Shown here: positions 5,331-48,872 of the stretch, one piece after another
Position numbering within the stretch: position 1 is the first letter of the stretch
Layout: each line of letters begins with the position of its first letter
DNA from: Catajapyx aquilonaris
Taxonomy: Eukaryota
Direction: 5' to 3'
DNA length: 59,295 bases
Assembly: GCA_000934665.2 (NCBI GenBank)
Contig: KZ538607.1
Coordinates: 1 to 59,295 of the forward strand
Position numbers and translations under genes: made by a program
Notes under the pieces: model-generated
The model's database searches: none
What the model saw: only the letters and a program-made list of their open reading frames with translations
Told to the model about the DNA's origin: nothing

Positions 5331-5374
5331 AATAGAGTTTGTGGAGGGCATCTGCAGTGTGATTTCTTGATCAG

Positions 5375-5720
5375 GTCTTGACTAAGGTGTGGGGACGGAA
5401 GTCTGTGGTTTTACTGTAGCTGTGGGGACCAGTTCCAATTGTGGGGACATTTGTCGGTCCCCACAGTCTCACACACGCGAAGTGTACCATTACAGTGGGG
5501 ACATGTGTAAATTAGTGGGGACATGTCCCCACTATTTTCATTTGTGGTTTTCACAAAAGTCCATTTTTCTCAGCCTAGGTTACTTAGGGTAGGGTAGGTT
5601 AGGTAGGATAGGTTAGGTAAGGTAAGGTTAGGTTAGGTTAGGTTAGGTTAGGTTAGGTTAGATCAGTTTACACTCGCAGTGAAAAGTGATCAATGTCCGT
5701 CCCCACGCCTTAGTCAAGAC
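5375..5720. mobile_element. GGGGAC-repeat/TTAGG-carrying TIR element, copy 1
   Basis: 25-bp inverted ends GTCTTGACTAAGG(T/C)GTGGGGACGGA; internal GGGGAC motifs; TTAGG tract about 5575-5659. Confidence 0.85.
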
Positions 5721-5819
5721 AAGAGTGTGTGGGTGTGGTCGAGCATACATATCCTTTCCTGGGCGCATCCTGCTCACTTGGACCCAAATTCTCCGTCGAG
5801 TGTTCGCATGCACCTCAGA

Positions 5820-16480: not shown

Positions 16481-16550
16481 CAGTGGGTGGGGTGGGTTCC
16501 AATGGATACCACAGTCTGTCAACTGGGGTGTGTGTGTGTGTGGGTGTTCA

Positions 16551-17259
16551 TGTCTTCAATTAGGTCTGGGGACGGAAGTTTGTGCTTTTACTGTAGCTGT
16601 GGGGACGTCTGTCCCCACAGTTCGAATTGCGGGGACATTTGTCGGTCCCCACAGTTTCACACACGCGATGTGTACTATTACAGTGGGGACATGTCTAAAT
16701 TAGTGGGGACATGTCTAAATTAGTGGGGACATGTCCCCACTATTTTCATTTGCAGGGTTTCACAAAAGTCCATTTTTCTCAGCCTAGGTTCGTTAGGTTA
16801 GATTAGGTTAGGTTAGTGTAGGTTAGTTTACACTAGCTTCGAAAAGTTGAATTTTCACGTCCCCACGCCTTAGTGAAGACAAGGCTGTGTGGGTGTGTGT
16901 GTGTGTTCGTGTCTTCAATAAGGTCTGGGGACGGAAGTTTCTGCTTTTACTGTAGCTGTGGGGACATCTGTCCCCACAGTTCGAATTGCGGGGACATTTG
17001 TCGGTCCCCACAGTCTCACACACGCGATGTGTACTATTACAGTGGGGACATTTCCATATTAGTGGGGACATGTCCCCACTATTTTCATTTGTAGGGTTTC
17101 ACAAAAGTCCATTTTTCTCAGCCTAGGTTCATTAGGGTAGGGTTGGTTAGGTAGCGTAGGTTAGGTTAGGTTAGGTTAGGTTAGGTTAGTGTAGGTTAGG
17201 TTAGTTTACACTAGCTTCGAAAAGTTGAATTTTCACGTCCCCACGCCTTAGTGAAGACA
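16551..17259. mobile_element. Head-to-tail dimer of the GGGGAC/TTAGG element (16551-16881, 16910-17259) embedded in (GT)n
   Basis: Two near-identical units, each with about 28-bp inverted ends and a TTAGG tract, separated and flanked by GT repeats. Confidence 0.88.
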
Positions 17260-18154
17260 AGGCTGTGTGTGTGTGTGTGTCAAAAAAGTGGCCTAAAATC
17301 AGTCACGTGGTATTTGCACGACCCCTAAGAGGATGCTCAAATAAGGACCACTTGAACTGTTCATGAAATGCATATCTACTGCCTGTGCAGTGCGGCAGAG
17401 CTTTAAAGTCATAAAAGTTATTTGAAGAAGGCATGTAAAAGATAGTGCCATACCACGAGCACGACCAATGCCAGTCCATGTGGGAATTATGTGCAGCAAT
17501 AGCTAAAGACCTGAGCCATTTCCCGCCCCCATGGTATCTCCACCTTATCGTGGTGGTGGGATTTGCGTTTCTCCCGTGACCGCAAGAGCTATGCCGGCGG
17601 TAGCTTCGTCTAGTGGTAGGGCCACCCAAACCGGACAGGTCTTTGGGATAGGAGACAGACTAAGAGAGATACCAGTCTTTTCCTCTCTTCTTTTGCCCTC
17701 TTTGTTTCTCTCTCCATCAGTCCCACCTTTGCGTCTTCTTACAGCCAGATAGCCATAGTTGCTTTGGCCTCTTCCTAATAAACCTAAACCTAAACCTGAG
17801 CCATCATGCAGCTATGTTGGCTTTCATAGAACATTCTTTAAAACATTTTCATGAATAAACAGAACTTACTGAGATGAAGTAATAGTTTTGACAGACCATA
17901 AAGTAACTATTCAAAAGTAATTGCTTAATATAATCAAATTAGTGGGGAAAAACTAACCAGTACAGACACTTCAACATTCTGTATATACATATCATCTCTT
18001 TTTTGCCAAATAATACAGTACTAACCAAATTTGAAAATTCACAGTGGTTGTGTAAATACTGCCAGATGTTCCTCAAATCAGTTGCTTGGTCACTGACAAT
18101 ATTGAAAAGCTTGTGGTCCAAACCTTCCTGATTAATCAGTCTCATTCACAGAGC

Positions 18155-18580
18155 TCAGTCAATGTTATCATCCAGTTCTTCCAAGGGAACCTGAATGCCC
18201 TCATCACCCACGGTAGAGGACAAACCAATGTGATCTGACATCTCTGGCAATAGCTCCTCTTCCTCACTCGGTGAAAAGTCAAAGCTGTTTACATGGTCAT
18301 TAATTCCTTCATTTTCCACATCATCTTGCTCCTCTTCTAACTGCTCCTCATCTTCCAGAGGAATTCTGTCCAATTGTCGCATCTCAATGTTCACGTTAAT
18401 CTCCAGCTGCATATGAACATCAAAGACCATAAAGCCTACCATAACAATGAGAGGCAATCGAAGACGTGATTCCCAAGCCAACTTGAAGAGGTAGGACAGC
18501 CCTGAACGGAACACCTCACTGTCCAGTCCAAGCACACTAGAAATACCAGGCACACTATCCACTGGTAACGAATCACTCAT
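18155..18580 (-). CDS. Uncharacterised 141-aa protein with a hydrophobic segment (LRLPLIVMVGFMVFDV) and an acidic C-terminal tail
   Basis: ATG in GCCATGA context at 18580; natural-looking composition; not inside any visible repeat; upstream acceptor AATTCAG at 18751. Confidence 0.7.
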   Translation of the reverse strand: MSDSLPVDSVPGISSVLGLDSEVFRSGLSYLFKLAWESRLRLPLIVMVGFMVFDVHMQLEINVNIEMRQLDRIPLEDEEQLEEEQDDVENEGINDHVNSFDFSPSEEEELLPEMSDHIGLSSTVGDEGIQVPLEELDDNID

Positions 18581-18848
18581 GGCAGAAGGTGGCAATGAAA
18601 CCTCTTCCAGGATGGACCGGGTTGGACTGAAAGTGAAGATTCAATTCATAGATGATGCAGTGAAATACGTTTGGTACAAGGCAATGCATAAACTGTCCTG
18701 TAATGCAGATACCGCTCCAAAACTTTCTTCAAGGCAGCAATTAACCTTCTCTGAATTTGTAATATCAATAATAACATACCGTGACTGTTAAATTGGTATG
18801 AAGCAAATTTTCACCATTTGGACTGCCATGAAATTGACAGGATTAATA

Positions 18849-19018
18849 CAGGGTGTTCCAAGTTCGTGGGGTCTTTTAGTTATAAGAAATTTCACTCGAA
18901 GCTGTTATTTTTTTGTAGCTTGTTGTGCCCTGGGGCACCTGGATTGGGGCACAAAAAATACCTACTTTGGGCGATATCATTGATAACTAAAAACTACCTA
19001 CAAACTTGGAACACCCTG
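18849..19018. mobile_element. Tc1/mariner MITE
   Basis: TA|CAGGGTGTTCCAAGT...ACTTGGAACACCCTG|TA; partial relative at about 29555. Confidence 0.85.
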
Positions 19019-19101
19019 TATAGTAGGTCCTCTTACACTATATTGGGGAAAAAAGGGAAAGGATTAACCTTGAAGCTCATGGTAAACTATTACTGAATTA
19101 C

Positions 19102-19222
19102 CTGCCATAGACCAACATACCAGTATGTAATTGGGCCGACCACGGGACAGGTACACTTTGGGGGATACGGCCAACCAATATAAAGTGGAGTAATTTTTGC
19201 GATTCTCTCCTTCCCTTTACAA
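19102..19222 (-). other. Candidate upstream exon of the 18.2-26 kb unit
   Basis: ACCAG acceptor and CAG|GTAATT donor; unique sequence bracketed by two TEs. Confidence 0.45.
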
Positions 19223-19300
19223 CTGGTATTCCCAATAAAATAAATGCAAATACTTTTAAATCTTTAACATATTTTATGTGGATACCAATATAAGGCTTAA

Positions 19301-20083
19301 GGGCGCCGGATACCTGCACGATTTTTCAGAATCGCGGGCCATAGAGCCACTGACGGAGTTTTGATCCATTAGAATCATAATTACAAGATCTACAGGGGGA
19401 AGAGTTTTTGAGAAGCGGCTTACAACATCTTGGCTCCAGATTCGGATTTGGGAAATATCTCGAAGGTCAGCAATGGAAAAAGTTGTCCTCTCTTACTCCT
19501 CCAAAGCGTAATTAATTTGGGCTATTGGTTTTTGCACAGCTATTAAAACGGTTTCATCACCTCGCCTCGCAAAATCGCCGGAGAACTTTTGAACGTATTG
19601 GTTCCCTGTCCAGGTTGCCAGGGAACCGGTTCAGGCTATATAATTAAAAAAGCGCGTTGGTAACAGGGAACCAACCGTTCTATTTCAGAAGTACTCCCTC
19701 CGATTTTACGAGGTGAGGTGGTGAAACAGTTTTAATAGCTGGGCAAAAACCAATAGCCCAAATTAATCGTGCTTTGGAGGAGTAAGAGAGGGCAACTTTT
19801 GCCATTGCTGACCGTCGAGCTATTTCCCAAATTCGAATCCGGAGCCAAGATGTCGCAAGCCGTTTTTCAAAAACTCTTCCCATTGTAGATCTCGCAATAA
19901 TTATTCCAATGGATCGAAAGTTCCGTCGGCGGCTCAATTGGCCCTTCCTCGCCATGCTGTGAAAATTTCAGGTCCGTACCTCCAGCGAGACGCCAGCATT
20001 GGCAGGGCAAAGAGAATGCTGCACCCGTGACTTGGTCAAACTTGTCCGGCGATTCTGAAAAATCGCATAGGTATCCGGCGCCA
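19301..20083. mobile_element. TTAA-flanked palindromic element (Kolobok-like by purine-starting termini); half copy at 47574 to about 48010
   Basis: TTAA|GGGCGCCGGATACCT...AGGTATCCGGCGCCA|TTAA; arms of about 330 bp. Confidence 0.8.
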
Positions 20084-20486
20084 TTAAGAAATAAATTCAC
20101 AGCCCCAGTAATATATTTTCCTCTGCTGTGTATTACTTACTGGAACATTAACAGTACATATTTTATTGCATAGGTCTACATCATGAGGTTCTCCAAACTC
20201 AAGGCAGTTACAGTATGTGTCTCTCAAATGAATCTCCTACTGGTGCATCGACAACAACAAAAATTTTCTGTAGCTAGGGGCTGTCCGTACGTTAATTTGA
20301 AGGGCAGGAGGTCAGTTGACGTCAGGCCAGGAAAAAAAGGTCTGGCTATAAGGACAGTCCAAAGTGACTTGAAACTATCTACAGCATCTCCTCAGAATCT
20401 CCCCCTCTCCTCCATGCCCATGGACCAAGGTGTTGCAGCAGAACAAGCTCCTCTGGACACTGAATGAAGGGGTCTCAGGAGGTTAA

Positions 20487-20608
20487 CCTCCTGAGACCCC
20501 TGGTACAGTATACTGTACCTTTGCTTTTTTTTTTTTACGCGTTTGAGTTAGTCAGAAGGTGCTGGAAAAAACAAAGGTACAGTATACTGTACCAGGGGTC
20601 TCGGGAGG
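20487..20608. mobile_element. piggyBac-like mini-MITE
   Basis: TTAA|CCTCCTGAGACCCCTGGTACAGTATACTGTACC...|TTAA; empty-site paralogue at about 22270. Confidence 0.85.
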
Positions 20609-20808
20609 TTAAAATAAAGGTCTGTGCTATACCTCCGAGGTCTGCACTACCCAATATTATTATATGATTATTATATTATAACATGCAAAATGAATACTTT
20701 ATTGTTATAGAAAATGTTGAATTATCATCACCTGCGATCTTTTTTCTATCATTTGAGACATGTTAGCGCTATGTAATCGTAATGCAATTGAATTAAGTTG
20801 AGACTTTA

Positions 20809-21150
20809 AGCTGCGTTTACATGTGGGGGATGTGATCAGCTATGGCATCACCCGTGAGTTGTAGCAGTTCTGAAGTCATGACGCAAGTGATAGTGCTTAT
20901 ACATCGCCCATGTGTTTACATGCCGGGGATATGCATCACCAAGGCATGCTAACAGTACAGTACAGGACAGCAACTGTACTGTTGGCATGCCGTGGCGATG
21001 TCATCACCATCGTCTTTTTCAAACAGGCCTGACTGATGCCCTCCCTTCATAAAGGCGATTGCTACTTTTGGCCCAAATCACTGCTTTGATTTGGATTTCA
21101 TGGCTCAGTGATGACATCACCGATCAAATCGGCCACATGTAAACACAGCT
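20809..21150. mobile_element. PIF/Harbinger MITE
   Basis: TTA TSD; TIR AGCTG(C/T)GTTTACATGTGG. Confidence 0.8.
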
Positions 21151-21163
21151 TTACACCCTGTAT

Positions 21164-21789
21164 CACGGACTAGATATCTAAGGACTGGCCACTCTCCCTC
21201 TAATCGCGTTGGGAGGTTAACTGGGGTGGTTATGCACTTCGGAGCCACAGGTGGCGCTGATCAGGGCCCAGATAATATATACTCTATGGCCCATACATGT
21301 GGTGCTCCTACTGGGGCCCTACGCAATGAGGTAGAAGAGAATCAGTGAGAGAAGCCAGTTTTGAATACGGCCCCGGTAGGAGCGCTACAGGTATGGGCCA
21401 TAGAGTATATATAATCTGGGCCTGTATATGATGGGCATTGTCCCATGAGCTTGCTTTCACTTCCTACATACTGGAGTGAGTTTCCCAAATTGGGGTGAGA
21501 TGATAATGGAGGTTTTGCAGCGTATAAGTATCATAATCTTGTCTCCTCCCCAAACACTTTCCTTTCTACCTAATGCGTGATGTACAAATGTAAGAGTAAG
21601 AATGTAAGGACGAGAGTCCCCCTTGGAAGGGCCACGGCCCACAGGGTAAACAAATAAATAAATAAACAATAAATATATAATCTGGGCCATGATCAGAGCC
21701 ACCTGTGACTCCGGAGCACATAACCACCCTGTTAGCCTCCCAACGCGATTAGAGGGGGAGTGACCAGTGCTTATTATTACTACTCCGTG
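21164..21789. mobile_element. P- or hAT-type MITE with about 110-bp TIRs
   Basis: CACGGA...TCCGTG termini; perfect 8-bp TSD CCCTGTAT; extra internal inverted repeat about 21263-21422. Confidence 0.85.
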
Positions 21790-22321
21790 CCCTGTATCAA
21801 CAAGCTACTCCCCCCCCNCCCCCCCCCCCCCCCCCAATTGGCCTGGCAAAACCTGCCAGAAACTACAGTAGTAGGAAAAATCTACTTTATTTGGGTGAAA
21901 TTCAATCGTCAATGTTCAATAGTTAATTAATTATAAATGATCCCTATGGGGAGCCTTGGGAGCCAGTTTGCAAGTATGGAATGCCATAAGTCGGGCCGTT
22001 TATAAACCGTGCACTTCCTGTGCTTTGAGCATTAATTTGAAATTTGGAATAATTCAGGAAATTCATTGCTAATCAATAGGAATGCTAAAGGGGAAAAAAA
22101 TTCTCCAGAAACATCAGTGGTTTTCACAAATTGAGTTTCTCCAGAGCAACATGCCTGCTTCCAAACAATCTACAGCATCTCCCCACATCTCCCCCATGCC
22201 TCCACGCCCATGGACCAAGGTGTTGCAGCAGAAAAAGATCCTCTGGACACTGAATGAATGCATTAAATTATTAAAATAAAGGTCTGTGCTATACCTCAGA
22301 GATGTCTGCACTACCCAATAA

Positions 22322-22430
22322 ACTAAACTCTGCCGCAGCGAAACAAAAGAGTAACAATAAAATAACAATAAGTAATATTGTTATTTTATTGTTACTCTTT
22401 TGTTTCGCTGCGGCAGTGGCAGAGTTTAGT
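22322..22430. repeat. Near-perfect short palindrome (about 50-bp arms)
   Basis: ACTAAACTCTGCCGCAGCGAAACAAAAGAGTAACAATAAAATAACAATA and its reverse complement. Confidence 0.85.
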
Positions 22431-22521
22431 AACATACTCATAGCTGGTCCCTTTTTGCAAAAATATTGTAAAAGTGATACATCTAAGCTGCACGTTTCAC
22501 ACCTTATACATAGTTACTTAC

Positions 22522-22644
22522 ATGCAGGCCAGTTTCTGAATCAGGTATTCCATAAAGTAATAATAATGCTCGGGCCCAGTACACTTGGTCACTGAAGAGT
22601 TGTTGGTTTATAAACCCCTTGTCTTCCTGTCTAATGGCTGTTCT
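22522..22644 (-). other. Candidate upstream exon of the 18.2-26 kb unit
   Basis: Strong acceptor ATTTTCATTGCAG and consensus donor GTAAGT; 123 nt; one frame open. Confidence 0.55.
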
Positions 22645-23037
22645 CTGCAATGAAAATGATAATGAATCATAATAAATCCAGCTATTCCTATTGTGTGAAT
22701 GACCAAAATGTTAAAATATTGCACGATTTGAATAGCGCTAGGGGCTTCAAAAAGGTGCCCCATACAAGTTGCACATTCTTTGCGCCTAGCCCAGACCTCT
22801 CAGCATAGTGCCAACAGCCTGCAGGAAACCTGCTTAAATATTGTCACTGGTCAAGCCATGAAATATTTCTGCCTACAATTTTGGTGTCAGCAAAAGCTTG
22901 GAATGTAATACAAAAGCTTGGAATGTAATACAAAACCTTTCACATTTGCATGCTGACCAGTTCCTCATGGACGCTATAGTCAACAGATGTCATAGAATGC
23001 ACTTGACACTGTTTGTTTACTCACAAGGGAAGTGTAA

Positions 23038-24572
23038 GGTCCGGTTCACACGTGACCACTTTTAGTGGTAGACGCTAGCCACAGCAACTGGCCACCGTTG
23101 CTTATACACATGATTAAATGGGAGCTTTCACACGTGGCCACTGCAGTGGCGAGGGTAGGCGTTTGTGGGCTCGGAGTGGCTTGGAAGTTGCTTGACCGCG
23201 CGATTGAGTGGCAGGCCCGAGCATCTTTGCTCCTACAAGTGCTCAAGGCCAGGCACCACTCGGTAGTGGACCATTGGTTTGCATTGGTGCATTCACATGG
23301 AGCCACAGCCACAGGCCGCTCACGCCCACAGGCCCAGTCATATGTCCACGTTACAGGGTCATCGAAAAAGAATGTCCCATTTTTAAAACCCTATAACTCG
23401 AAAACTTGTAGAGATATCTTAATGATTTAAGTTTTGAAATGTTAAGAAATGACTAAGGTTCTGGTCTTACCATAGTTTGTTTCGATATGAGCTCCATTTG
23501 TAGCTCAAAAAATGTAAATATGGTAACCGGTGTCCTACCTAACCCACTCAGGCATGTCTGGCATTACCGCTGAAATATTTTCTCGTAGGTGATGGTGGTG
23601 CCGAATCTTGTCACCATACATGTATCTCCACAAAAAAGTCCATCTGGGGAAAATCTGGGCTTCTGGAGGGGCTAGGCATGGAGAAACTTCTCATACAAGA
23701 CTTCTCACACTGGGAAGCTGAACAAATAAAAATTTTCTACGGCAGGTTTATTTCATGGATGAGGTGACTTTTTTTATTTGAATCATCAAGAACAATGTCT
23801 GTGGTGTAAATATCAGATATATCCAGCACCTACGGGATAAGATTGCAACAGTAACTCCAGATGTGATTGATAGGGTTTGTCCCGACACCTAATACAGGCT
23901 TTTAAATCTGCATAGCGATAAATGAAGCTCTCATCGAAAAAAAACTAACCTGAAACCAAAACTGTAGACCTTTCTTAACATTTCAAAACTTAAATCATTC
24001 AGACATGCCTGCAAGTTTTTCGAGTTATAGGGTTTTTTAAATTGGACATTCTATTTCAATGACCCTGTATTTCATGCCGCGAGGAAAGGGCAGTTTACCA
24101 CCTTGGATTGTGCAATTAGTGAAGGAAATTAATATCGAAGACTTTATATCTGACGTTGAGGTCTATGCGCCTAGCCCGATATTTGGGACGCATCAGTTGC
24201 CGAAAATACCGGGGGGAAAAAACCTTTCATTGCCTCAGATCTTGGAATAGTATATGGTACAGTCCTTTCGACGACGACCTTTCCAGGCAAGGATGAACAT
24301 GAATTTTCCTGTTTTGCCTGCACTTTTTATTCCTTGTCAATAGAAGGAGTAGCAATAATGCATTTGCTACTGGTTGCCATACTGAATCTGGCCCACCTGC
24401 TGTGGCGAGCGTCTGCCCCAGTGCAGTGGGCGATTCGAGCGCTTGCAGTGCCGGAAGCCAGCGACTGCAGTAGGCTGTGGCGCGCGACTGAAGTGGCCAC
24501 GTGTGAACCGGCCCGAGCGACTGCAGTGGTCAGTTGCGGCGCGCGACTAAAGTGGCTACGCGTGAACAGGCC
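23038..24572 (-). mobile_element. Deleted PIF/Harbinger transposon with transposase N-terminal relic
   Basis: TAA TSD; TIR GG..GTTCAC; minus-strand 'RKIHVHPCLERSSSKGLYHILFQDLR...YFRQL' (about 24190-24330) resembles the Harbinger transposase N-terminus. Confidence 0.8.
23354..24067 (-). mobile_element. Tc1/mariner deletion derivative nested in the Harbinger element
   Basis: TA|CAGGGTCAT...ATGACCCTG|TA, about 100-bp TIRs; relic 'PSRSPDFPQMDFF' resembles WPPRSPDLxPxDFF. Confidence 0.85.
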
Positions 24573-24618
24573 TAAGTGTTGATAATGGAGTTGCTGAATG
24601 AAACTTGGCACAATAATA

Positions 24619-25302
24619 GAGGCCGGTTAGTTATTAAAGAAAATGCAAACAATTTAGGCAGAACCATACAAGGTCAAAAGTTCTGCGCTCTCGAACTCAC
24701 AAGGGACACTTTCCAAGGTCTTACCGATTTTCTTGAAATCCGGTACATTGGTAGCCCACCCCAAAGGATGAAAAACCCACCTAGAGTGACCTGCTCAAAA
24801 TGACCCGGTGAGCCCCGGGGGGGGGGGGGGGGGGGGGNNNNNNNNNNNNNNNNNNNNNNNNNNNNNNNNNNNNNNNNNNNNNNNNNNNNNNNNNNNNNNN
24901 NNNNNNNNNNNNNNNNNNNNNNNNNNNNNNNNNNNNNNNNNNNNNNNNNNNNNNNNNNNNNNNNNNNNNNNNNNNNNNNNNNNNNNNNNNNNNNNNNNNN
25001 NNNNNNNNNNNNNNNNNNNNNNNNNNNNNNNNNNNNNNNNNNNNNNNNNNNNACCCCCCCCCCCCCCTACAAATTTCCTGGCTACGCCGCTGGGTAGCCC
25101 CCAAAAAGGGGTCAGCGGGTCATTTTGAGCAAGTCACTTTAGGTGGGTTTTTCATCCCTTCGGGTGGTACCAATGTACCGAATTTCAAGAAAATCTGCAA
25201 GACCTTGGAAAGTGTCCCTTGTGAGTTCGAAAGGTCATAACTTTTGACCTTGTATGGTTCTGACTAAATTTTTTGCATTTTGTTTAATAACTAACCTGCC
25301 TC
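24619..25302. mobile_element. MITE with about 190-bp TIRs spanning the assembly gap
   Basis: GAGGCCGGTTAGTTATTAAA...TTTAATAACTAACCTGCCTC. Confidence 0.8.
24838..25052. other. Assembly gap (215 N) between poly-G and poly-C runs
   Basis: Run of N. Confidence 1.
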
Positions 25303-25331
25303 TATTATTCTATCAACAGTTCAACACTTAC

Positions 25332-25438
25332 ACGTCCCTTGTCAGATTGTTGAGTGAGGGCATCTCCATGGAAACGTGAAAAGTAGGAAGTTCCAGAAGT
25401 GCATTATAGGATGTCCATTGACTATATCAAATTGAAAT
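25332..25438 (-). other. Candidate upstream exon of the 18.2-26 kb unit
   Basis: TCTCAG acceptor, GTAAGT donor; contains short ATG-initiated ORFs. Confidence 0.4.
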
Positions 25439-25659
25439 CTGAGATTACATAAGTTACTTCGGTCACTCTGAAACACAAGAACCCTGGTACCATCAGAACT
25501 TTTGCAAAGCATCATTATCAACTGCTGCAATAAGCAATGCTTTCACTGGAAGAAAAAATCCATACACTCACATTTTAACGTATTATTTGGTGAGGTATGA
25601 TGTATGAGTATGGAATTTTTTCAATAAAAACATGTTGATTGCATCAATTCATACTTTAC

Positions 25660-25759
25660 CTACACATCTTTCTATGTTCCACCCTTGACTGTAGAATGAG
25701 CATTCGGCATGGCATTGTTTTCTACAACTCCAACGCCAAGTAGGGTAGGCAGGGGTGAG
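25660..25759 (-). other. Candidate upstream exon of the 18.2-26 kb unit
   Basis: CTTGTAG acceptor, AG|GTAAAG donor; 58-nt intron to the next upstream donor at 25817. Confidence 0.5.
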
Positions 25760-25817
25760 CTACAAGGTAATCAAGATATAAAACTAGAACGGGCACAGCA
25801 CATGATATTGGAGATAC

Positions 25818-26250
25818 CTTCGTGTTTCATTCTCTGAATCTGCGCACCGTCTGCCACTATAAGCACTATAACTCTCTGCCTGTCCATAACCAAAGACTTG
25901 AGATATATACCTAGATCCTAGAGGACAAATCCAATCCAAAAGTGTGTTTGCATCTGTCGCCCGCCTTCCCCCACTTTCTACTCTCGTTCCAACATTGCCC
26001 GTTTGTCGGCGCTGTTCCACTGCCTGGGAGTGGGGCGCACTAAGCGGCCAGTGTCAACACTACTATCTGGTTTATCCTTTATGTCAAGAGCACGGTCAAG
26101 AGAGGTCAAGAGCGTCCTATTCCTCCGTGGAGCGTCACAGCTAAAAAAGTGGTTTGACTACTGAACGCCTGATGGCGCTCTGCCTAGAGCACTGGAGTCA
26201 GCGTCGACCAACGGTATCTTTTAAAACCTTCAGACGGGCCGCGGGTGGGG
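25818..26250 (-). promoter_or_regulatory. Putative CpG-rich promoter and first exon of the 18.2-26 kb unit
   Basis: Local CpG enrichment, GATGGCG motif, donors AAG|GTATCT (25817) and TAG|GTATAT (25910). Confidence 0.4.
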
Positions 26251-26487
26251 AGGGCCACGCTATAATATCTACTCGTTTCTCACTTTCTCTGACTAAGTCA
26301 ATGCCATACTGCATGCAGTACGTGCTGTTCTCTGTCGGCAATTATCCAACTAATATGGAGTCCACGGTGATGGAGTCACAAAGTCTCTCGAGGCCACCCC
26401 TCCTCCTCCCCGGAACAGTCTACAACAGCATTCAAAAATGACCGCGGCATCTCCTTTCACTTCCATTGCCTCATGCTTTTTAAAAAA

Positions 26488-26549
<62 letters not shown>

Positions 26550-26559
26550 CAACAATAAC

Positions 26560-26631
<72 letters not shown>
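26488..26631. repeat. (AAT)n microsatellite
   Basis: Direct observation. Confidence 0.98.
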
Positions 26632-28329
26632 TTGACGTAATCCGAACCTGTAATTACTCTGCCCAGTTGCGTGTGTAGGGGAAAGTGGACAGTTATACTG
26701 ACCACGAAAGAAAAATTGATGATTTTTAAAATGAACGTTACGGTACAGTACATGTCACACCGAAGTAGGCAAGTAGCTATAATAAAGATCATTAAGCAAT
26801 TGTATGAGACTATGAAATACAGTATTTTCAATATATTGTGGCATTCTAAATATTATACCAGTATTTCAAACTCAGCAAAACAGTTGTGATTGGCCACTAA
26901 GGTATATAGTTTCACTATACCAAAAGACTCGAGAGCATCTTACATTAACCCAGATATGCCTGGAAAAGTTTTTGTTGAATTTTTAAGCTTTTTTTGTTTC
27001 TATTATTAGTTCATATTAGTACCCAAAACACAAAAAGTGAGATGAAACATTTTTCTGACTGCTTGTTTGCGAGAAAATGGCTATATAACAGTTGTTGATT
27101 ACATTACCATGACAACAGTGACATTCAGCAATATCCATAGTTTCATAATATCACCACTGATTGATTGTTGTCTATTGCATTACCATTGGAAACAGGCCAC
27201 CCAAAGAATGGGTTGTAATTGAGTAACAATCAACAACAATCAAGGATTGTTGCAACGGTTGCCATGTTAACCAATTGGCATGTAATCTCATTTTAATTGT
27301 ATGGATTCATTAAAATACAGTTCAACAAATCATACAAAATCCACACACATACTTCACTTGTCTAATGTGGGTGCATTGGCCTCTTTGTTCCCCCGAAGGT
27401 TGTTTGGTTGGTTGGTAGGAAGGGTTACCCAGCTTGTATGGCTCTGTCTGAGTCGAGCCTTGGCAGCCGGGGGTAGGAGAGGAAGGTGTGGGATTGCAAG
27501 GTAGGGGTGGGTGAGAAGGGTGGGGGAGAGGAGGGCTGCCCCCAGCTGTACTGCAATGCCGGGTCCAACCCAGGGACGGGGGTGGGATATTTTCCCAAGC
27601 ACCCCGTCCGACCAAGAAATGCGAGTCAGGTCCGCAGAGAGTACCGTCGCTGGCGAACCAGCCGGGACCTCATACAACCCAATTGATTAATTATCAAATA
27701 AATTCTTCCCTTCTGTGTTGTGATTAGTGTTCCCCCAAAGGGACGCCAGATTTCAGCACTACTCTCAGACAAGGAGAGTAAAAAACATTCCAATATTTCC
27801 ACATCGACATCATCATTCATAAGTTTTCTAAGTATTACAAACAAAAAATAACTCATAATGCTAATCAACATTCGAGAATTAATTACTAATCGTCTTCGGA
27901 ACATGGAGGTGCAGCCATTATTTCCTGAGTTGAAATTCAAACACCTTAACTCTTAAAAATCTGAAGCAATATTGAGCAGGTTTGAACCTGTATCGTTAGC
28001 TGGGACTCTCCTGAAGCCCCCGTCACTACTGCCAGCTCTTTAGCAGCAGAAGAACCTGCACAAAAAATTAAAATGTAACAACTGTGCAGGTGTCCCCTAT
28101 AGGGGACACTCGGCATATCTGAGTTAAGATAGACATTTATACTTGCCACTCTTATGGCCTGTTAAAAGTATTCATATGGGCTATGGCTGCTATTTTGCTC
28201 TTTTGGGAGGGTTGGAAAGAAACCCTGTCTGGTGTGTTACAGGCCATGAATGGCAGGATGACTGTGGGCAGGACATAAGCAGGATTGCAACCAGCACAGT
28301 CAGGAGCACGGTCAGGAGGCTTTGTAGAT

Positions 28330-40238: not shown

Positions 40239-40867
40239 TAGAATAAAGGCTAATAGTAGGCCAATAGAATAGTCCTTGGGGGTTTTCGATGCATGATGGT
40301 GCATTTAGGAGGGCCTTGTCGCCAAGAACTGTATGTGTGAATGTTGCGGAATGCAGCCTATATGTACTATCAACTAAAAACCCAGTTACATGGATTGTAA
40401 AAAGTTTACAATCAATGAGACCTTTCACCTATGATGTCATCCCATTAAAAATATCACAGGGGTGGCTTAATACCCATGAAAATATAAACTACAAACATTT
40501 CCTAATGCTATGGCTTAAGACATTTCCATCGGAGTTATAAGCCTACCAATGATTTTTTAAAAAATTGTGTGTGATAGACTTATAAGACTACCAAAATGGC
40601 ACGCAGTAAATGTAGGGTTAAATGGTTAGCAAGATACATACAGTAGTTGAGGGTGTTTCTAAGGTTTTAAAGATTTAATCTACAAGAATTTGACAAATTT
40701 AGTGCACCTAATATCATTTAATCCTATGGAATGGGACTTTATGGTCACTCTGTATATATCGCTCCTGATGCAACATGTCACCAGGTAATTTTAATTGGCC
40801 ATTGGTAATTTGGAGGTGAAAAAAAAAAGTTCAAATTGTTGGAACATTTGAACTGAACTTGTCCCAC

Positions 40868-41182
40868 CTGCTTGCAAGTTGAGACTGCGACCCTTGATTC
40901 CAGCTTCCTTCTTAGGTGGAGACCACCAATTGACAAATGAGCCAACAATAGGCACATGCCGCAGGATTCCCTCTTGCCAGATGCGGTCCTCATTCTCACG
41001 CTTCAGGTCTTCATTAACAGCCTCAATGCCCTTCTTAACAATCTCAGTCATCTTCTCAATGTAGCGTGATGACTCTTCGATTTCCTGTCCAGTGCTAAGA
41101 ACCAAATTAAGAAGCTCTTCAATATCCGTCTCTGATGTTACCATCCCGAACCGGACACACACCATCCCATCTTCGCCTTCAC
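40868..41182 (-). CDS. PDXDC1: PDXDC1 exon 14 (GEGEDGMVCVRFGMV...EGILRHVPIVGSFVNWWSP...GRSLNLQAG)
   Basis: Acceptor CAATAG, donor G|GTGGGA; 315 nt; recognisable PDXDC1 C-terminal signature. Confidence 0.95.
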
Positions 41183-41234
41183 CTATTGAAAATATTCATT
41201 ATAATCTCTGCCAAAGTATGGCACCTTTACTCAC

Positions 41235-41475
41235 CAATTGAGAATGCTGAATCAATGCTACGCAGCTGATTGACAAGTTCAGTGTTGAGTTGATTAGCCT
41301 CCTGCTTTGATTGGTCAGTGTCACGGTCGTCAGGATTTCGCAGCCAGCTGCTAGGAATGAATCGAACTCCACCCAAGCCTGCCCATTGTGGAACTGTTAC
41401 TGATTGCAGCTGGTCTACATGAGTCACCAGCTCCAGAAATGTGACCTTGTGTTTCACAGTGGCATCCAAAATATC
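41235..41475 (-). CDS. PDXDC1: PDXDC1 exon 13 (DILDATVKHK...WAGLGGVRFIP...DSAFSIG)
   Basis: Acceptor TTTTCAG, donor G|GTGAGT; 241 nt; WAGLGxVR motif typical of PDXDC1. Confidence 0.93.
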
Positions 41476-41527
41476 CTGAAAAATGTTTGTTAAAGAGGAT
41501 GCAATAACACTTCACAAAGTTTCGTAC

Positions 41528-41689
41528 AAGTTGTTGCTCAAGGCAGACAATAAAGTCATCCACATCCTGCTTGGTCACATCCACTGAAGAGAACTCCAAT
41601 GGACAGAAACGGATGGAGTAGCCGCATGCTTCAACATCCACTATCTCAATTGACAGCTGTGGGGCATCCCTCTGCAGAATCTGTCCTAA
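41528..41689 (-). CDS. PDXDC1: PDXDC1 exon 12 (LGQILQRDAP...IRFCPLE...CLEQQL)
   Basis: Acceptor TGGCAG, donor CTT|GTACGA; 162 nt. Confidence 0.92.
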
Positions 41690-41749
41690 CTGCCAACACA
41701 AAGAAATTGTAAAAATAGCTCTAACATAAGGTCATATAAAATTAGTTAC

Positions 41750-41854
41750 CCAGGAATTGAGATTGTCAAAGTAAGGAGGATTCCGCCCTTCTGTTTCTTC
41801 CCTTTCTGGTATGTAGTGAAATACAACAGTTGATAGTGCAACATCAAACAGGAT
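41750..41854 (-). CDS. PDXDC1: PDXDC1 exon 11 (ILFDVALSTVVFHY...YFDNLNSW)
   Basis: Acceptor TTTTAG, donor TGG|GTAACT; 105 nt. Confidence 0.9.
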
Positions 41855-41916
41855 CTAAAACAGACAGTTGTTTAACTGACAAACTTGAGACAAGGCTTAG
41901 TTAAGTTCATGCTTAC

Positions 41917-41991
41917 TGAAGGTCCCACAGGTTTGGTGTCCAAGTCATCTATGGAGTAACCTTGTCCTTCTTCCACTTCATGATGAGGACT
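41917..41991 (-). CDS. PDXDC1: PDXDC1 exon 10 (SPHHEVEEGQGYSIDDLDTKPVGPS)
   Basis: Acceptor CTATAG, donor TCA|GTAAGC; 75 nt; flanked by 62-nt introns. Confidence 0.82.
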
Positions 41992-42053
41992 CTATAGTAT
42001 GTAAGAATTGATTAACACCCCATCACATACTTTCACCTCCCAGCAGTACTTAC

Positions 42054-42155
42054 TAGAAGTTTCACATGTTTAAATGTGAGCAGTTTTGTTTCCAAATATC
42101 TTGTCAATTCAAAGGCTTGTCTAATTCGCATATGCACACCATCTTGTCCCAGCAC
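42054..42155 (-). CDS. PDXDC1: PDXDC1 exon 9 (VLGQDGVHMRIRQAFEL...HVKLL)
   Basis: Acceptor ATAAAG, donor CTA|GTAAGT; 102 nt. Confidence 0.88.
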
Positions 42156-42356
42156 CTTTATATGAAGAGATAACTGTTAGTGTGAAAGCCTCAATTGGTT
42201 TTTAGCAAGACAATGTCTACTTTTGTCAAATTCCCCATATAAAATGCCACTGTCCTGACCCATATTCTTGTCAGAGCAAGGGGCACTGCAGAAAATATGT
42301 GGTAACTTATTCAGGAATCTGAATTTATACTAGCAACTTGCATCACAATAACTCAC

Positions 42357-42461
42357 CTGCAGACACACCCAAAGGGGCAGACAATTCAGCCTAAACAGTA
42401 AATTGAAGGAACTTAGGCCTGCTGCATGGATAAGAGGGGCATCAGCAGATTTATACAATGT
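42357..42461 (-). CDS. PDXDC1: PDXDC1 exon 8 (TLYKSADAPLIHAAGL...LPLWVCLQ)
   Basis: Acceptor AATTAAG, donor CAG|GTGAGT; 105 nt. Confidence 0.9.
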
Positions 42462-42524
42462 CTTAATTTAAATTAAGGACATTTCCAAAAACAATGACAA
42501 ATACAAAACTAGTGAAAAGGATAC

Positions 42525-42596
42525 AACAAATGGAAGCCCAGGCACCCCCAGCCACTGGCCCAATGTCAGAGTCATGCTCTCTCCTGTTCTGGTGGC
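42525..42596 (-). CDS. PDXDC1: PDXDC1 exon 7 (ATRTGESMTLTLGQWLGVPGLPFV)
   Basis: Acceptor CTTCACAG, donor GTT|GTATCC; 72 nt; too short for the ORF track, translated by hand. Confidence 0.9.
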
Positions 42597-43381
42597 CTGT
42601 GAAGCATAAAACTAAATTTAGTAAATGATTGCACACACATTACCTCCCCATTTTTCTGTACCAATCCTCCCTTTTTAAAGCATATTTGTTGTAGTTTAAG
42701 GTGCATTCACATATCCGCAATTCCGTTCCCGTGACCGATTCGGTGCCCCGTCGCTGTCGCTGGAGCATTCATGTATCCATGACGCGGAGCCCCCAGCGAC
42801 AAAGTTCCTGTCCTGCGACCGATTTGGTGCCCGTCCCAGATCTGCTAGACCCAGATACCTGCGACGGCAGACACATGGTCGCTGGCGACAGAAGTCACAT
42901 GTAGGCCATTTTGGCCAATAGAACTGCAGCCTTGGAGGAAGGAAGACGGACAAACGTCTCCAGACAGCCTCTCCTCCTTGCCATCATGCGGGAAGGTGGG
43001 AAGGTGGGAGCTGGCGGGGAGATGATTGCAGGGGTGTTCGAATGGATGTGTGTTGAATATTTTGAATAAAGGAATGAAAAGGGGGTCCCCATGCCTTGTT
43101 AGGATCACTAGTATTAGTGCTGGTGATCCAGTAGACTGAGTAAAGTCATGGAAGTATTTATGACATGAGCCTGCCTGTCCCATCATGGCAAAGGAGTTCT
43201 CTGGGCCTTACTGAGTCCGCTTTCCATCTCCCGTTCTCATATTCATAAATCTTCTCTGGTGCTCCATGTTACTCGACCATTTTTCTTTCACCAGGATTTC
43301 TGATTTTAGGCAACCAGGCTGGCTTTTTGCCACTACATCTAACAAATGAACTGCATTCAGGTGCTTATAGATGTATGATTA

Positions 43382-43863
43382 TAGAGTCCAGATATTTAGT
43401 TGCGAAAAAAATCTTGAAATAGGCACGAAAAAACTGAAATGGGCCCAAAAATCTTACTTTTGTGGGTGTATGGAGGATGATGTTACAGAAAATCAAATGA
43501 GAGACACCAACTCTATAGCCCTAAACTCCTAAAGTATAAAATAATAAAAGGTCACAAACCAGAGCAAAAACCGAATAACAACGATAAACTAACAGGAAAT
43601 CACAAAACTTGGGCGAAAGACATAGTAACACTTGCTCTGGTCTCTACCGCTTATAGCCCATTTCCCAGAAAAGGCCAAATAGGCATGAATAGGCGCTAAA
43701 AGCCAGAATAGGCAAAATAGTTCCCAAAACCACAACATAGGCAATTTTAGGCGCTAGCCTACATTTTCTACATCCTGCACTTATGAAACACACAGTTCTC
43801 TTCACAAAACAATCCCAACTGTAAATGAACTAAATAGGCATTTGCCTAAAAATCCCGACTTTA
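43382..43863. mobile_element. hAT-like MITE with AATAGGC repeats (related to 52185-53537)
   Basis: Absent from the opposite arm of its host; TAGAGTCCAGAT...ATCCCGACTTTA ends. Confidence 0.65.
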
Positions 43864-43964
43864 GATATGACACTTATTGATTGCACCACTTTTAGAAAAC
43901 TTGAGAATATTTACCGTTTTTGCCATAACCTTATATGCATCTTATCCAACGGCAGAATGCATTT

Positions 43965-44210
43965 GAGGCGCTCAGAGGAAGAACAGCATATCCCAACCGA
44001 CCTCCAATTTTGAGATAGTAGTGCTGTTGCACTCTCCTGGCATCTACCTTTCACGTGCTGAAGTACCAAATGAATTGGGATATGTCAAAGCTCACATATT
44101 CCACTTGTTAAATTGTGCTTTCAGAGCTCAGTAGTAAAACAAAACACAAAAAGGCATTTTCCTCAAAATGAACTCCGCTTGGGATATGCCGTTCTGCCTC
44201 TGAGCGCCTC
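43965..44210. mobile_element. Sola-like MITE (GAG termini, 4-bp TSD)
   Basis: ATTT|GAGGCGCTCAGAGG...CCTCTGAGCGCCTC|ATTT; single ATTT in the opposite host arm. Confidence 0.8.
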
Positions 44211-46533
44211 ATTTATCTCCTGCACGAGCATGAATACACATATCCTCTTGAATTTCGTGGACATCTATACGGGTATTTTACTTCTTTTTTTCTTGTTCTT
44301 TTACATACGTGACTGCATGGCTATGCTCATACACGTTACCCAACACACATCACAGGAAGTGTTGGAAGTGGTCACCATGATATGCATGAGACACTTGTCC
44401 ATGTGGCAATGCATGCTGTTGGAAACATGTCTCAATGTTGCAACATCAAAGTTGCGGATTTTTTTACTGTATTAATGGTTTCCTGTAAGGCTTCAATAAT
44501 AATAATTCTACCTGGCTTGCACCTACAAAACCTCTCCGGGCTTGTCAGCTCAGGCTATCTTGGTGGCCACATACTTTGGAAATGACAATAGGTGAAATTT
44601 TCTTCCCACTGATAGCTACTGCTAACTTATTAGTACCAGTGTTGTCATGAATTTTCCATTGATTTTTGGCCATTTATTTACGAGATACCGTATAACACAA
44701 TTTTAGGGTACGAGTCTATAGGAATGCGTCATGAGTGTTATGTGTCGCTGCTATCACAAGCTAACGTGCATTTACACTGATTATTCTGTGTTGGGTAACA
44801 TATGCTAGACCAGCCATGATTGTAGTCATGCATGTAAAAGGACAAGAAAAGGAGGTAGAAATGACAGTACCAGTAGATGTCCACGTAATTGAAGAGAATA
44901 TGTGCATTAAGTAGGACACTGATGGTGAAGCAGGATATAAATGCATTTTGCCATATAAGATGCAAAAAGTTATGGCAAAGATGGAAAATATTTTCAGGTT
45001 CTCTAAAAGTGGTGCAAGTGTCATATCTAAGCACCTGAATGCTGTACCATTGTTATGCAGCATGTAGTGGCAGAAGCAGCCTAGTTGTCTAAAATCAGAA
45101 GTCCTGGTGAAAGAAAAATGGTCGAGTAACATGGAGCACCAGAGAAGATTTACTACGAATATAAGAACGGGAGATAGAAAGTGGACGCAAGCAAGGCCCA
45201 GAGAACTCTGTTGCCATGATGGGGCAGGCAGGCTCATGTCATAAATACTTCATACACACATACATGCATGCTTTTATAACATTATAAGTGGTAGCGTGAA
45301 ATGGAAAAGGAGATGCAAAAACATGAAAATACGCAAAATATGCATCATTCAAATGTGTGACCAAAATGCATAATTATGGTGTTATTTTCAGACATTCAAA
45401 ACCCGACCACAACATGTGAAGAAAAAATCAGCACCACGGTTCAGGTGCATTTATTGCAGTTTCCTCACTTTTCGTGGACAATTTGCTCCAAATTCTACGA
45501 ATAGGCGAAAAATCATGTCACCTACGCTAGGTCCATACTAATTTTTGCGGCCTCGTCGTGCTGCATGTTTGTCCGCACATCCCAATTATACCGGCAATAA
45601 ACTGCACGCGTTTTGATTGACCTGAAAGAAATGTGCTGCCCATTTTTTCCACTGCTACTCGCATACACTGGCGTATGTCTAAAGTCCCAGCACACTTTCC
45701 TGCCACATTTATGTAGTGTTTTGTAACTTCTTACAACTCTCCTTTTATTATAAACATCCATGGAACTCTGCTGTGACTGTAGCAGAAGATCAAAAGTGCT
45801 TTCATTCTGGAATTATGCCCCCAAACATTTATTTTGACGTGCTGTACCGTATTCAACATTTCCCCGGATTCAATTTCGAACCTCGCCGCCATCCTGCCTG
45901 CCTCTTATCTTGCTGGATACCACGGGCGATGCCTTGCATTAAAAACTTAAATGATTTTACTTTTACAAACGTCCATGGAGGTGGCCCCTGACCATAGCAG
46001 ATGGCCAGTTGCAAGTTTGTGACAGAAATATGCCTTCCAAGCGTGTACTTTGAGGGATAAGGCCGGCTCTCAGTGGAGGCCAGCGGAGCCTCCATCTTTT
46101 TTTTCGGGCATGAGATCGTGGCGACGGCTTACGTGAATGCTGTCACGACGTCATGCACCGAAGAGTGCTGCGACCGGGCCCCCAGCAGCTGGGTGATACC
46201 ATGCCCGAGACGTCGCTCGGGCACAGGGTCGTGGTCGCAGGCGCCGATATGTGAATGCACCTTAAAACCTGACAAGCTGATATGATTGATTGATTGATGG
46301 TTTAATGGCGCAACAGCAGCAATGGCTATACTGCGCCAAACAAGCTGATATGTCCCATGCAATCCACAACCAATGAAAATATCAGGGACTGGTCACTTTT
46401 TTCTAACCAATTCCCTTATGTTAGTCTTCCTCAGAAAGAACGCTATCTATGTTCAGGCAAAATATCTTGGCAAGAGCACCCTAAATTTTAGAGTAGAAAA
46501 ATGGGGCCTATGCATCGATAAATTTTGACTCAC

Positions 46534-46661
46534 AGCATTTGGAACTGCAATCATTGCTTGGGCAGCCAAGCTGTGACCTTCCACATGTAGCCATATCTCA
46601 TATTGCTTGCACAGTTCCTGTAGGCGTTGAATGTTATCCACATGTCCTGTGACAGGTGTCC
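46534..46661 (-). CDS. PDXDC1: PDXDC1 exon 6 (GTPVTGHVDNI...WLHVEGHSLAA...VPNA)
   Basis: Acceptor TTTTAG, donor GCT|GTGAGT; 128 nt; WLHVEG corresponds to WLHVDAA of group II decarboxylases. Confidence 0.93.
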
Positions 46662-46721
46662 CTAAAAGACAACAGGAAAATGCAATGGCTGGGGTGAGCA
46701 TTAGATAAACTCCTCCATTAC

Positions 46722-46869
46722 CTGCATTAGCTACTACAAGAAGCGGCACTTTTCGAGCTGCTAGATCATCATGCACTAGGCGTTCCAAAGCTGCCACATC
46801 CATCTTGTGTTGTGATCCAAACATGGTGTTGCAGGGAACTACACTTACGCATGAAAGGGGTAGTCCCAA
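46722..46869 (-). CDS. PDXDC1: PDXDC1 exon 5 (LGLPLSC...PLLVVANAG)
   Basis: Acceptor TTTGCAG, donor G|GTAATG; 148 nt; group II decarboxylase 'P-x-x-V-V-A-x-x-G-T' motif region. Confidence 0.93.
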
Positions 46870-46924
46870 CTGCAAAAGCAAAAATTTGAGTAGTGCACCA
46901 GTGGATCCATAATCATGTGTTTAC

Positions 46925-48493: not shown

Positions 48494-48684
48494 CGAAATA
48501 GTCTAGACACCCATAGACTTGTGTCAGATGTAATTCTGGTTGCCACATTCTTGATGTGATTGTGCTCCAAAGTCGAGACATATGCTGCAATTGTGTGCGT
48601 CACCACAGACAATCTTGCAGGCTTGTCCAGATGCTTTAAAATTGCTGTTGGTCCTTCTTCTACATCACCATACATTAAGAGTTC
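48494..48684 (-). CDS. PDXDC1: PDXDC1 exon 3 (ELLMYGDVEE...SLWVSRLFR)
   Basis: Acceptor TTTTGCAG, donor CG|GTGAGT; 191 nt; 'RITSDTSLWVSRLFR' resembles PDXDC1. Confidence 0.92.
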
Positions 48685-48690
48685 CTGCAA

Positions 48691-48739
<49 letters not shown>

Positions 48740-48748
48740 GTAATAATA

Positions 48749-48825
<77 letters not shown>
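48691..48825. repeat. (AAT)n microsatellite filling PDXDC1 intron 2
   Basis: Direct observation. Confidence 0.98.
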
Positions 48826-48872
48826 CTTCATGTAGTCATGCCTTCACTGGCAATCCAAAACAACAACTTCAC

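Follow-up and report, generated by a model that had tools for sequence, protein, structure and literature searches.

The closest described counterparts of the gene reported here are the SMIM10 genes of vertebrates. The SMIM10 family is described as comprising small integral membrane proteins whose role is unknown, and DUF4560 is given as a motif of human SMIM10L2A (PMC8872619). An HGNC (HUGO Gene Nomenclature Committee) paper treats SMIM10, SMIM10L1, SMIM10L2A, SMIM10L2B and SMIM10L3 as paralogues and locates SMIM10L3 in the 5′ untranslated region (UTR) of FAM220A; family members are found in unusual transcripts, annotated as long non-coding RNAs (lncRNAs) or nested in a 5′ UTR, a trait that the gene described below resembles (PMC12807706). 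Judged by their titles, the studies listed under SMIM10 names (25 of 106) deal with expression and lncRNA signatures, and none of those listed with protein function. Here, we describe a minus-strand gene on contig KZ538607.1 of Catajapyx aquilonaris (assembly GCA_000934665.2; the window comprises the 59,295 nt of positions 1–59,295, forward strand). A preliminary description of positions 18155–26250, made from the letters of the sequence, had proposed an orphan gene in which about five spliced leader exons feed an open reading frame (ORF) of 141 amino acids (aa). Our analysis indicates, with a probability of about 85%, that these islands of unique sequence are joined as a spliced, protein-coding arthropod gene on the minus strand, with the 141-aa ORF lying entirely in the last exon and encoding a DUF4560/SMIM10-like product.

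The splicing evidence stems from one public sequencing run (X1, 32 million letters, available as contigs only), whose library type is unrecorded and which is not labelled as RNA. The run contains 86% of the sampled sequence words of the last exon. Its contigs, which drop rare isoforms, were aligned to positions 16800–26400, where 73 could be placed, 46 of them at only 90–95% identity; the parts that received no cover (19047–19688 and 26109–26400) are counted merely as not seen. Six joints were recovered from these contigs, namely 25818/25759, 25660/25421, 25332/22644, 25660/22644, 25664/22644 and 22522/18626, and each of them reads CT..AC on the plus strand, which corresponds to GT..AG on the minus strand, with canonical splice-site sequences. 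Since the contigs represent several alternative forms with canonical ends on one strand, and since the run is far too small for an arthropod genome, we treated X1 as spliced RNA.

All exons described in the following lie on the minus strand. For leader exon 1 only the 3′ part is covered (25818–25847), which forms the 30-nt side of joint 25818/25759 with the donor AAG/GTATCT; the contig depth in the bin 25788–26108 amounts to these 30 nt of the exon 1 contig. About 60 nt upstream of it, a pattern match at 25909 marks a TATA-like element (25904–25909, minus strand), which may represent a promoter element. An intron of 58 nt leads to leader exon 2 (25660–25759, 100 nt), which takes part in four joints (25818/25759, 25660/25421, 25660/22644 and 25664/22644) and possesses a second donor at 25664, 4 nt upstream of the one at 25660. 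Leader exon 3 is a 90-nt cassette (25332–25421) that is included by the joints 25660/25421 and 25332/22644 and skipped by those running from 25660 or 25664 directly to 22644, so that three alternative leader isoforms are present among the contigs. Leader exon 4 (22522–22644, 123 nt) is connected with the last exon by a contig of 983 nt, which comprises 22644 to 22522 and 18626 to 17767 with 0 mismatches and thus defines a last intron of 3895 nt. The last exon extends at least over 17767–18626, begins behind the acceptor CACTTTCAG/TCC and contains 46 nt of leader, the coding sequence and a 3′ UTR of 388 nt or more. The coding sequence occupies 18155–18580 with the stop codon included, starts with an ATG and is contained as a whole in this exon, as had been proposed; the ORF listing, the Pfam match and the homologues agree on it.

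Six of the ten exon boundaries of the preliminary description (25818, 25759, 25660, 25332, 22644 and 22522) were recovered exactly, and the other four are unsupported. The acceptor of exon 3 had been placed at 25438, whereas the contigs give 25421, and the acceptor of the last exon at 18751, whereas the contigs give 18626; the two remaining boundaries belong to a fifth leader exon considered further below. A multi-exon, non-coding leader that carries upstream ATGs (uATGs) thus stands, with three or four exons observed instead of about five. The last-exon contig stops at the start of a repeat. At this border, contig depth reaches its maximum for the aligned region (86.9 in the stretch 17442–17762), and the contigs there show mismatches, deletions of 1 nt and loose ends; the stretch is a repeat family abundant in X1 that adjoins the covered end of the 3′ UTR and probably broke the contig.

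The 141-aa protein has a single match in Pfam, namely PF15118 (DUF4560), with an E-value of 1.1e-4 and 22.5 bits, in which residues 30–61 align with positions 33–64 of the 64-position profile. A first search returned three proteins of 86–88 aa with 73% identity in the core; a hypothetical protein from the crab Portunus trituberculatus is among them. A profile made from the window protein and these three matches retrieved 151 cluster representatives at E ≤ 1e-3, 32 of which scored at E ≤ 1e-10. When an alignment of 80 sequences served as query in a word-indexed search, 50 proteins were obtained, 20 of which carry a precomputed PF15118 label. The named relatives are uncharacterized proteins of decapods (Portunus, Petrolisthes, Homarus), barnacles, Odonata (dragonflies and damselflies), Diptera, a hemipteran and spiders. 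For closer inspection, the window protein was aligned with 84 of the 150 listed profile matches (alignment A2), leaving out P0002 and P0003 as near-duplicates of P0001, all of the weakest entries P0102–P0152 and a further 15 entries ranked up to P0101, which were mostly long proteins or matches deep inside a protein. PF15118 is matched at E ≤ 1e-3 by 51 of these 85 aligned members (best E-value 3.3e-12), and it is the top family for all 14 relatives chosen for comparison, three of which reach at least 27 bits. Since these relatives were collected by a profile seeded with the window protein and themselves match PF15118, the window protein belongs to DUF4560 by transitivity. By sequence comparison it is therefore an arthropod member of the known, functionally uncharacterized DUF4560/SMIM10 family and not the product of an orphan gene. 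Among 542 candidates screened for longer or fused relatives, not one reached E ≤ 0.01, although this is weak evidence; no usable match came from the ESM Atlas, and the best match in a sequence search of the PDB had an E-value of 0.75, that is, no related solved structure was found.

When compared to the vertebrate SMIM10 family by way of the Pfam profile, the only basis of this comparison, the window protein is likewise small and its match spans the C-terminal part of the model, but with 141 aa against 64 model positions it is longer by virtue of a 75-residue acidic tail. The named decapod proteins (Portunus trituberculatus E2C01_030245, Homarus americanus Hamer_G011013 and Petrolisthes cinctipes Pcinc_026208) share with it 73% identity in the core, the L-A-W-x-S-R-x-R-L-P hinge, the hydrophobic helix, the L-E-I-N-V-N-I-E motif and an acidic C-terminus; they differ in their length of 77–106 aa, an N-terminus reading M-L-R-D and a short tail. 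Since the N-terminus of the window protein resembles that of the group P0011, P0153 and P0158 rather than that of the decapod proteins, it may be a paralogue or stem from a different lineage.

The conserved family core, delimited by the columns of A2, by the Pfam match and by the helices of the structural model, covers residues 28–66 (18383–18499, minus strand). It consists of the end of a first helix, an S-R-x-R-L-P hinge, a hydrophobic helix and a following D-x-R/H-M-Q-L-E-I-N-V motif, and the family consensus reads L-A-W-x-S-R-x-R-L-P, hydrophobic stretch, F-M-x-L-D-x-R-M-Q-L-E-I-N-V. P43 is invariant in A2, and A35 and F50 are conserved in at least 95% of the sequences; the near-invariant positions kept by the window protein are A35, W36, S38, R39, R41, L42, P43, F50, M51, D54, Q58, E60, I61, N62 and V63. 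The remainder of the protein, residues 67–141 (18158–18382, minus strand), forms a variable, strongly acidic C-terminal tail with 27 aspartate and glutamate and 2 lysine and arginine residues among its 75 positions, which is predicted to be disordered on account of a predicted local distance difference test (pLDDT) score of 55–67 and a lack of secondary structure in the model. As the tail is net negative in 61 of the 72 members that have one of at least 15 residues, with a median aspartate and glutamate share of 0.31, an acidic tail is a family trait.

An AlphaFold2 monomer model calculated from the 85-row alignment (mean pLDDT 67, predicted template modelling score 0.28) contains helices at residues 21–37 and 42–70, a block with a pLDDT of 79–87. 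The first of these helices is predicted to be amphipathic and to be followed by the hinge and a single hydrophobic helix; the hydropathy profile has its best 15-residue window at residues 42–56, with a mean of 1.97. Both the small size (141 aa) and the single hydrophobic helix that mark the SMIM10 family are thus found here. The protein would be anchored in the membrane by this one helix, flanked by basic residues towards the N-terminus and by the acidic tail at the opposite end. Under the positive-inside rule, the basic flank of a membrane helix faces the cytosol. This would put the basic hinge on the cytosolic side and the acidic tail across the membrane from it.

The analysis of uATGs was restricted to the contig-supported leader, which comprises the 30 covered nt of exon 1, the whole of exons 2 and 4, exon 3 in the form that includes it, and the 46 nt that the last exon contributes. 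With exon 3 included, this leader measures 389 nt and carries 10 uATGs, compared to 5.9 ± 2.3 in shuffled sequences (P = 0.07); the two forms that skip exon 3 have leaders of 299 and 295 nt with 6 uATGs, compared to 4.7 ± 2.0 in shuffles (P = 0.32–0.33). The many short ATG-initiated ORFs noticed earlier are hence real but occur in numbers expected by chance. The leader is neither depleted of uATGs nor enriched in them beyond chance, and an enrichment, considered as a possible finding, was rejected on these P values (0.07–0.33). Exon 2 contributes four uATGs (25715, 25710, 25703 and 25667) and exon 3 another four, and six uATGs have a purine at position −3. The upstream ORFs (uORFs) in the main frame share a stop in exon 4 whose last base is 22608, the out-of-frame uORFs of all three isoforms end at or before 22643, and all uORFs except the frame opened by ATG 22553 end at or before 22608, about 130 nt of mRNA ahead of the main ATG. 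ATG 22553, located in exon 4, shares the frame of the main ORF, no stop separates the two, and a start there would produce a protein of 167 aa in all three isoforms; apart from this uATG, the leader contains no long frame, as stated before.

With 6–10 uATGs, several of which have a purine at position −3, scanning ribosomes would be expected to initiate upstream. The main ATG could then be reached via leaky scanning or reinitiation, since the last uORF stop (22608) precedes it by about 130 nt of mRNA, and the leader would thereby keep protein output low. Skipping of exon 3, which removes four uATGs, or the 4-nt shift of the exon 2 donor, which alters the uORF frames, could tune this output. A general uORF-mediated dampening of translation is a plausible proposal. 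The arrangement resembles delayed reinitiation of the ATF4/GCN4 type in that several uORFs precede the main ORF, with the said distance between the last uORF stop and the main ATG, but it differs in that the observed isoforms lack an inhibitory uORF overlapping the main ORF out of frame and in that the number of uATGs is at chance level.

Several points weigh against reading the locus as a gene for a DUF4560/SMIM10-like membrane protein with a uORF-bearing leader. The match to PF15118 (22.5 bits), significant by its E-value, stays below the 27-bit gathering score of the family. The X1 data consist of contigs that are not recorded as RNA and show neither the ends of the transcript nor its strand nor rare isoforms; as to the 3′ end of the transcript, a signal scan of the covered 3′ UTR (18154 to 17767) found no canonical poly(A) signal. 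On the side of the protein, the hydrophobic run from R41 to D54 comprises only 12 residues and the best 19-residue Kyte-Doolittle mean is 1.53, and membrane insertion is not certain for these two reasons. The uATG count does not exceed chance and therefore does not point to uORFs having been selected for, and the in-frame ATG 22553 may yield a longer product.

This last point leads to the alternative that survives best, namely that the main product is the 167-aa form started at ATG 22553, whose coding sequence would span the last intron. In each of the three isoforms the frame is indeed open from 22553 across joint 22522/18626 as far as the stop at 18155, and some decapod relatives (P0166, P0169, P0170 and P0171) are predicted with N-terminal extensions of a non-conserved kind ahead of a conserved methionine. 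These decapod extensions vary between species, however, and the extension of the window protein is unlike that of any relative. Moreover, the context of ATG 22553 is weak, with T at position −3 compared to G for ATG 18580, and the longer form would place 53 residues before the core, compared to 27 in the 141-aa form and a family median of 16 (interquartile range 8–22). Three relatives start with M-S and share the sequence S-S-V-L-G-L near the N-terminus with the window protein. Because of the G at position −3, these relatives and the length of the N-terminus, we favor the start at 18580 and consider the 167-aa form unlikely to be the main product.

The preliminary description, taken literally, makes a different transcript, in which an exon at 19222–19102 is joined to an acceptor at 18751, a uORF ends overlapping the main start, and translation could be controlled by termination-reinitiation or in an ATF4-like manner. 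The genomic splice sites for it are acceptable (donor CAG/GTAATT and a polypyrimidine-poor acceptor ending in AATTCAG), and as contigs drop rare variants, such a minor isoform is possible. Against it, the segment 19102–19222 (minus strand), which lies inside the last intron, has neither cover nor a joint (depth 0 in the bin 19047–19367), and its open frame has no Pfam match; the direct connection of 22522 to 18626 in the contig without mismatches bypasses it altogether. Since neither this exon nor the acceptor at 18751 was seen, the overlapping uORF, which begins upstream of 18626 in what is intron, and the startless open frame across 19102/18750, likewise intron sequence, are absent from the mRNA as observed. 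The main ATG is free of any overlapping uORF in the three supported isoforms, and with the overlap the basis for termination-reinitiation at the main start falls away. We regard this model as very improbable in its exact form, and the contig-supported transcript with three or four leader exons is retained.

It was also suggested that the mRNA might be polycistronic. One such arrangement is a bicistronic message that would carry the SMIM10-like ORF as its upstream cistron and a second ORF beyond 17767, in the manner of mammalian SMIM10L3 and FAM220A. The position of SMIM10L3 in the FAM220A 5′ UTR provides a precedent, reportedly first described by Ueda et al. in 2009. Moreover, the covered 3′ UTR lacks a canonical poly(A) signal, and its contig ends in a repeat and not at a visible transcript end. 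No GT..AG joint, however, leaves the last exon in the downstream direction within 16800–17767, a 68-aa ORF directly behind the stop codon has no Pfam match, and the same is true for all 19 stop-to-stop ORFs of at least 100 aa below 17800, a scan that short exons would escape. As neither the Pfam scans of downstream ORFs nor the joints lend support to a second cistron, we give this arrangement even less credence than the preceding one.

Least credible of all, and close to negligible, is a non-coding transcript (an lncRNA, or a snoRNA or miRNA host) with an incidental ORF, for which the long, uATG-laden and alternatively spliced leader, a hairpin in the last intron and the handling of human SMIM10L2A and SMIM10L2B as lncRNAs in several expression studies, as judged from listed titles, might be cited, but which is contradicted by the conservation of the ORF at the protein level across arthropod orders and by the absence of any Rfam family at gathering score. 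An Rfam scan of 17000–26600 gave 12 matches at E ≤ 1, none of which reached its gathering score, and the better ones were all sub-threshold, plant-type MIR hairpin models lying on inverted repeats; the idea of a snoRNA or miRNA host was rejected, as no family at gathering score was found in the introns.

The hairpin in the last intron (22320–22427) begins about 95 nt into the intron and is a near-perfect structure of about 108 nt with a calculated RNA folding energy of −72.9 kcal/mol (z-score −13.9). It gives sub-threshold matches to several plant-type MIR models on both strands. Most likely it is a small palindromic repeat element; that it serves as an intronic source of small RNA is possible.

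Repeats between the exons had been noted before and are real; the introns abound in inverted-repeat elements (19359–19919, 23401–24019 and 24605–25316, located by a repeat search), and there is also a miniature inverted-repeat transposable element (MITE)-like element. The latter lies in the last intron (18848–19019), has perfect terminal inverted repeats of 16 nt and matches three places in the window, compared to 0.05 expected; small apparent skips at 18900–18996 in the contigs stem from other MITE-like copies. The intron that separates exons 3 and 4 contains a perfect palindrome of 250 nt (24818–25067) nested within inverted arms of 149 nt (24605–25316), and the whole looks like a foldback-type element. 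X1 contigs of 90–95% identity map to 24605–25316, which indicates that related copies are present in X1. Just downstream of the gene, an element occurs in tandem in two copies of 92–95% identity (16528–17280), and a third copy, which has diverged from these, lies at a distance of 11 kb (5340–5742). The element contains runs of the pentamer CCTAA/TTAGG, which is the telomere-type unit of arthropods. Two long trinucleotide microsatellites, translated as poly-I or poly-L in the ORF lists, are located at 26414–26860, roughly 0.5 kb upstream of the presumed promoter, and at 48626–48870.

Among the 57 stop-to-stop ORFs of at least 100 aa in the window, credible Pfam matches were obtained only for the SMIM10-like ORF and for three exons of a PDXDC1-like gene with a pyridoxal-dependent decarboxylase domain. 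This gene lies upstream of the SMIM10-like gene on the same (minus) strand (40794–46920), and its exons match PDXDC1-like_cen2 (E = 1.3e-15), PDXDC1-like_cen (E = 1.4e-14) and Pyridoxal_deC (E = 2.8e-8).

Taken as a whole, the analysis corrects the call of an orphan gene, in that the ORF is placed in a widespread, functionally uncharacterized family with a large and mostly unnamed arthropod branch. Since a small ORF that follows a long leader easily escapes notice or passes for non-coding sequence, the contig-supported gene model with its alternative leaders is useful for annotation. The biology of the locus is otherwise ordinary, and no unusual mechanism has been demonstrated. A more speculative idea, which we consider improbable, is that, throughout the animals, ORFs for SMIM10-like microproteins may as a rule be carried by transcripts whose translation is complex. 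Examples would be the alternatively spliced, uATG-laden leader with its in-frame alternative start described here and, in mammals, the member nested in the FAM220A 5′ UTR and the two that were long classed as lncRNAs. If such an ancestral mode of control were true, with a dosage-sensitive membrane microprotein gated by upstream initiation or splicing-dependent sets of uORFs, arthropods would provide, in these genes, a tractable model for a family without known function.

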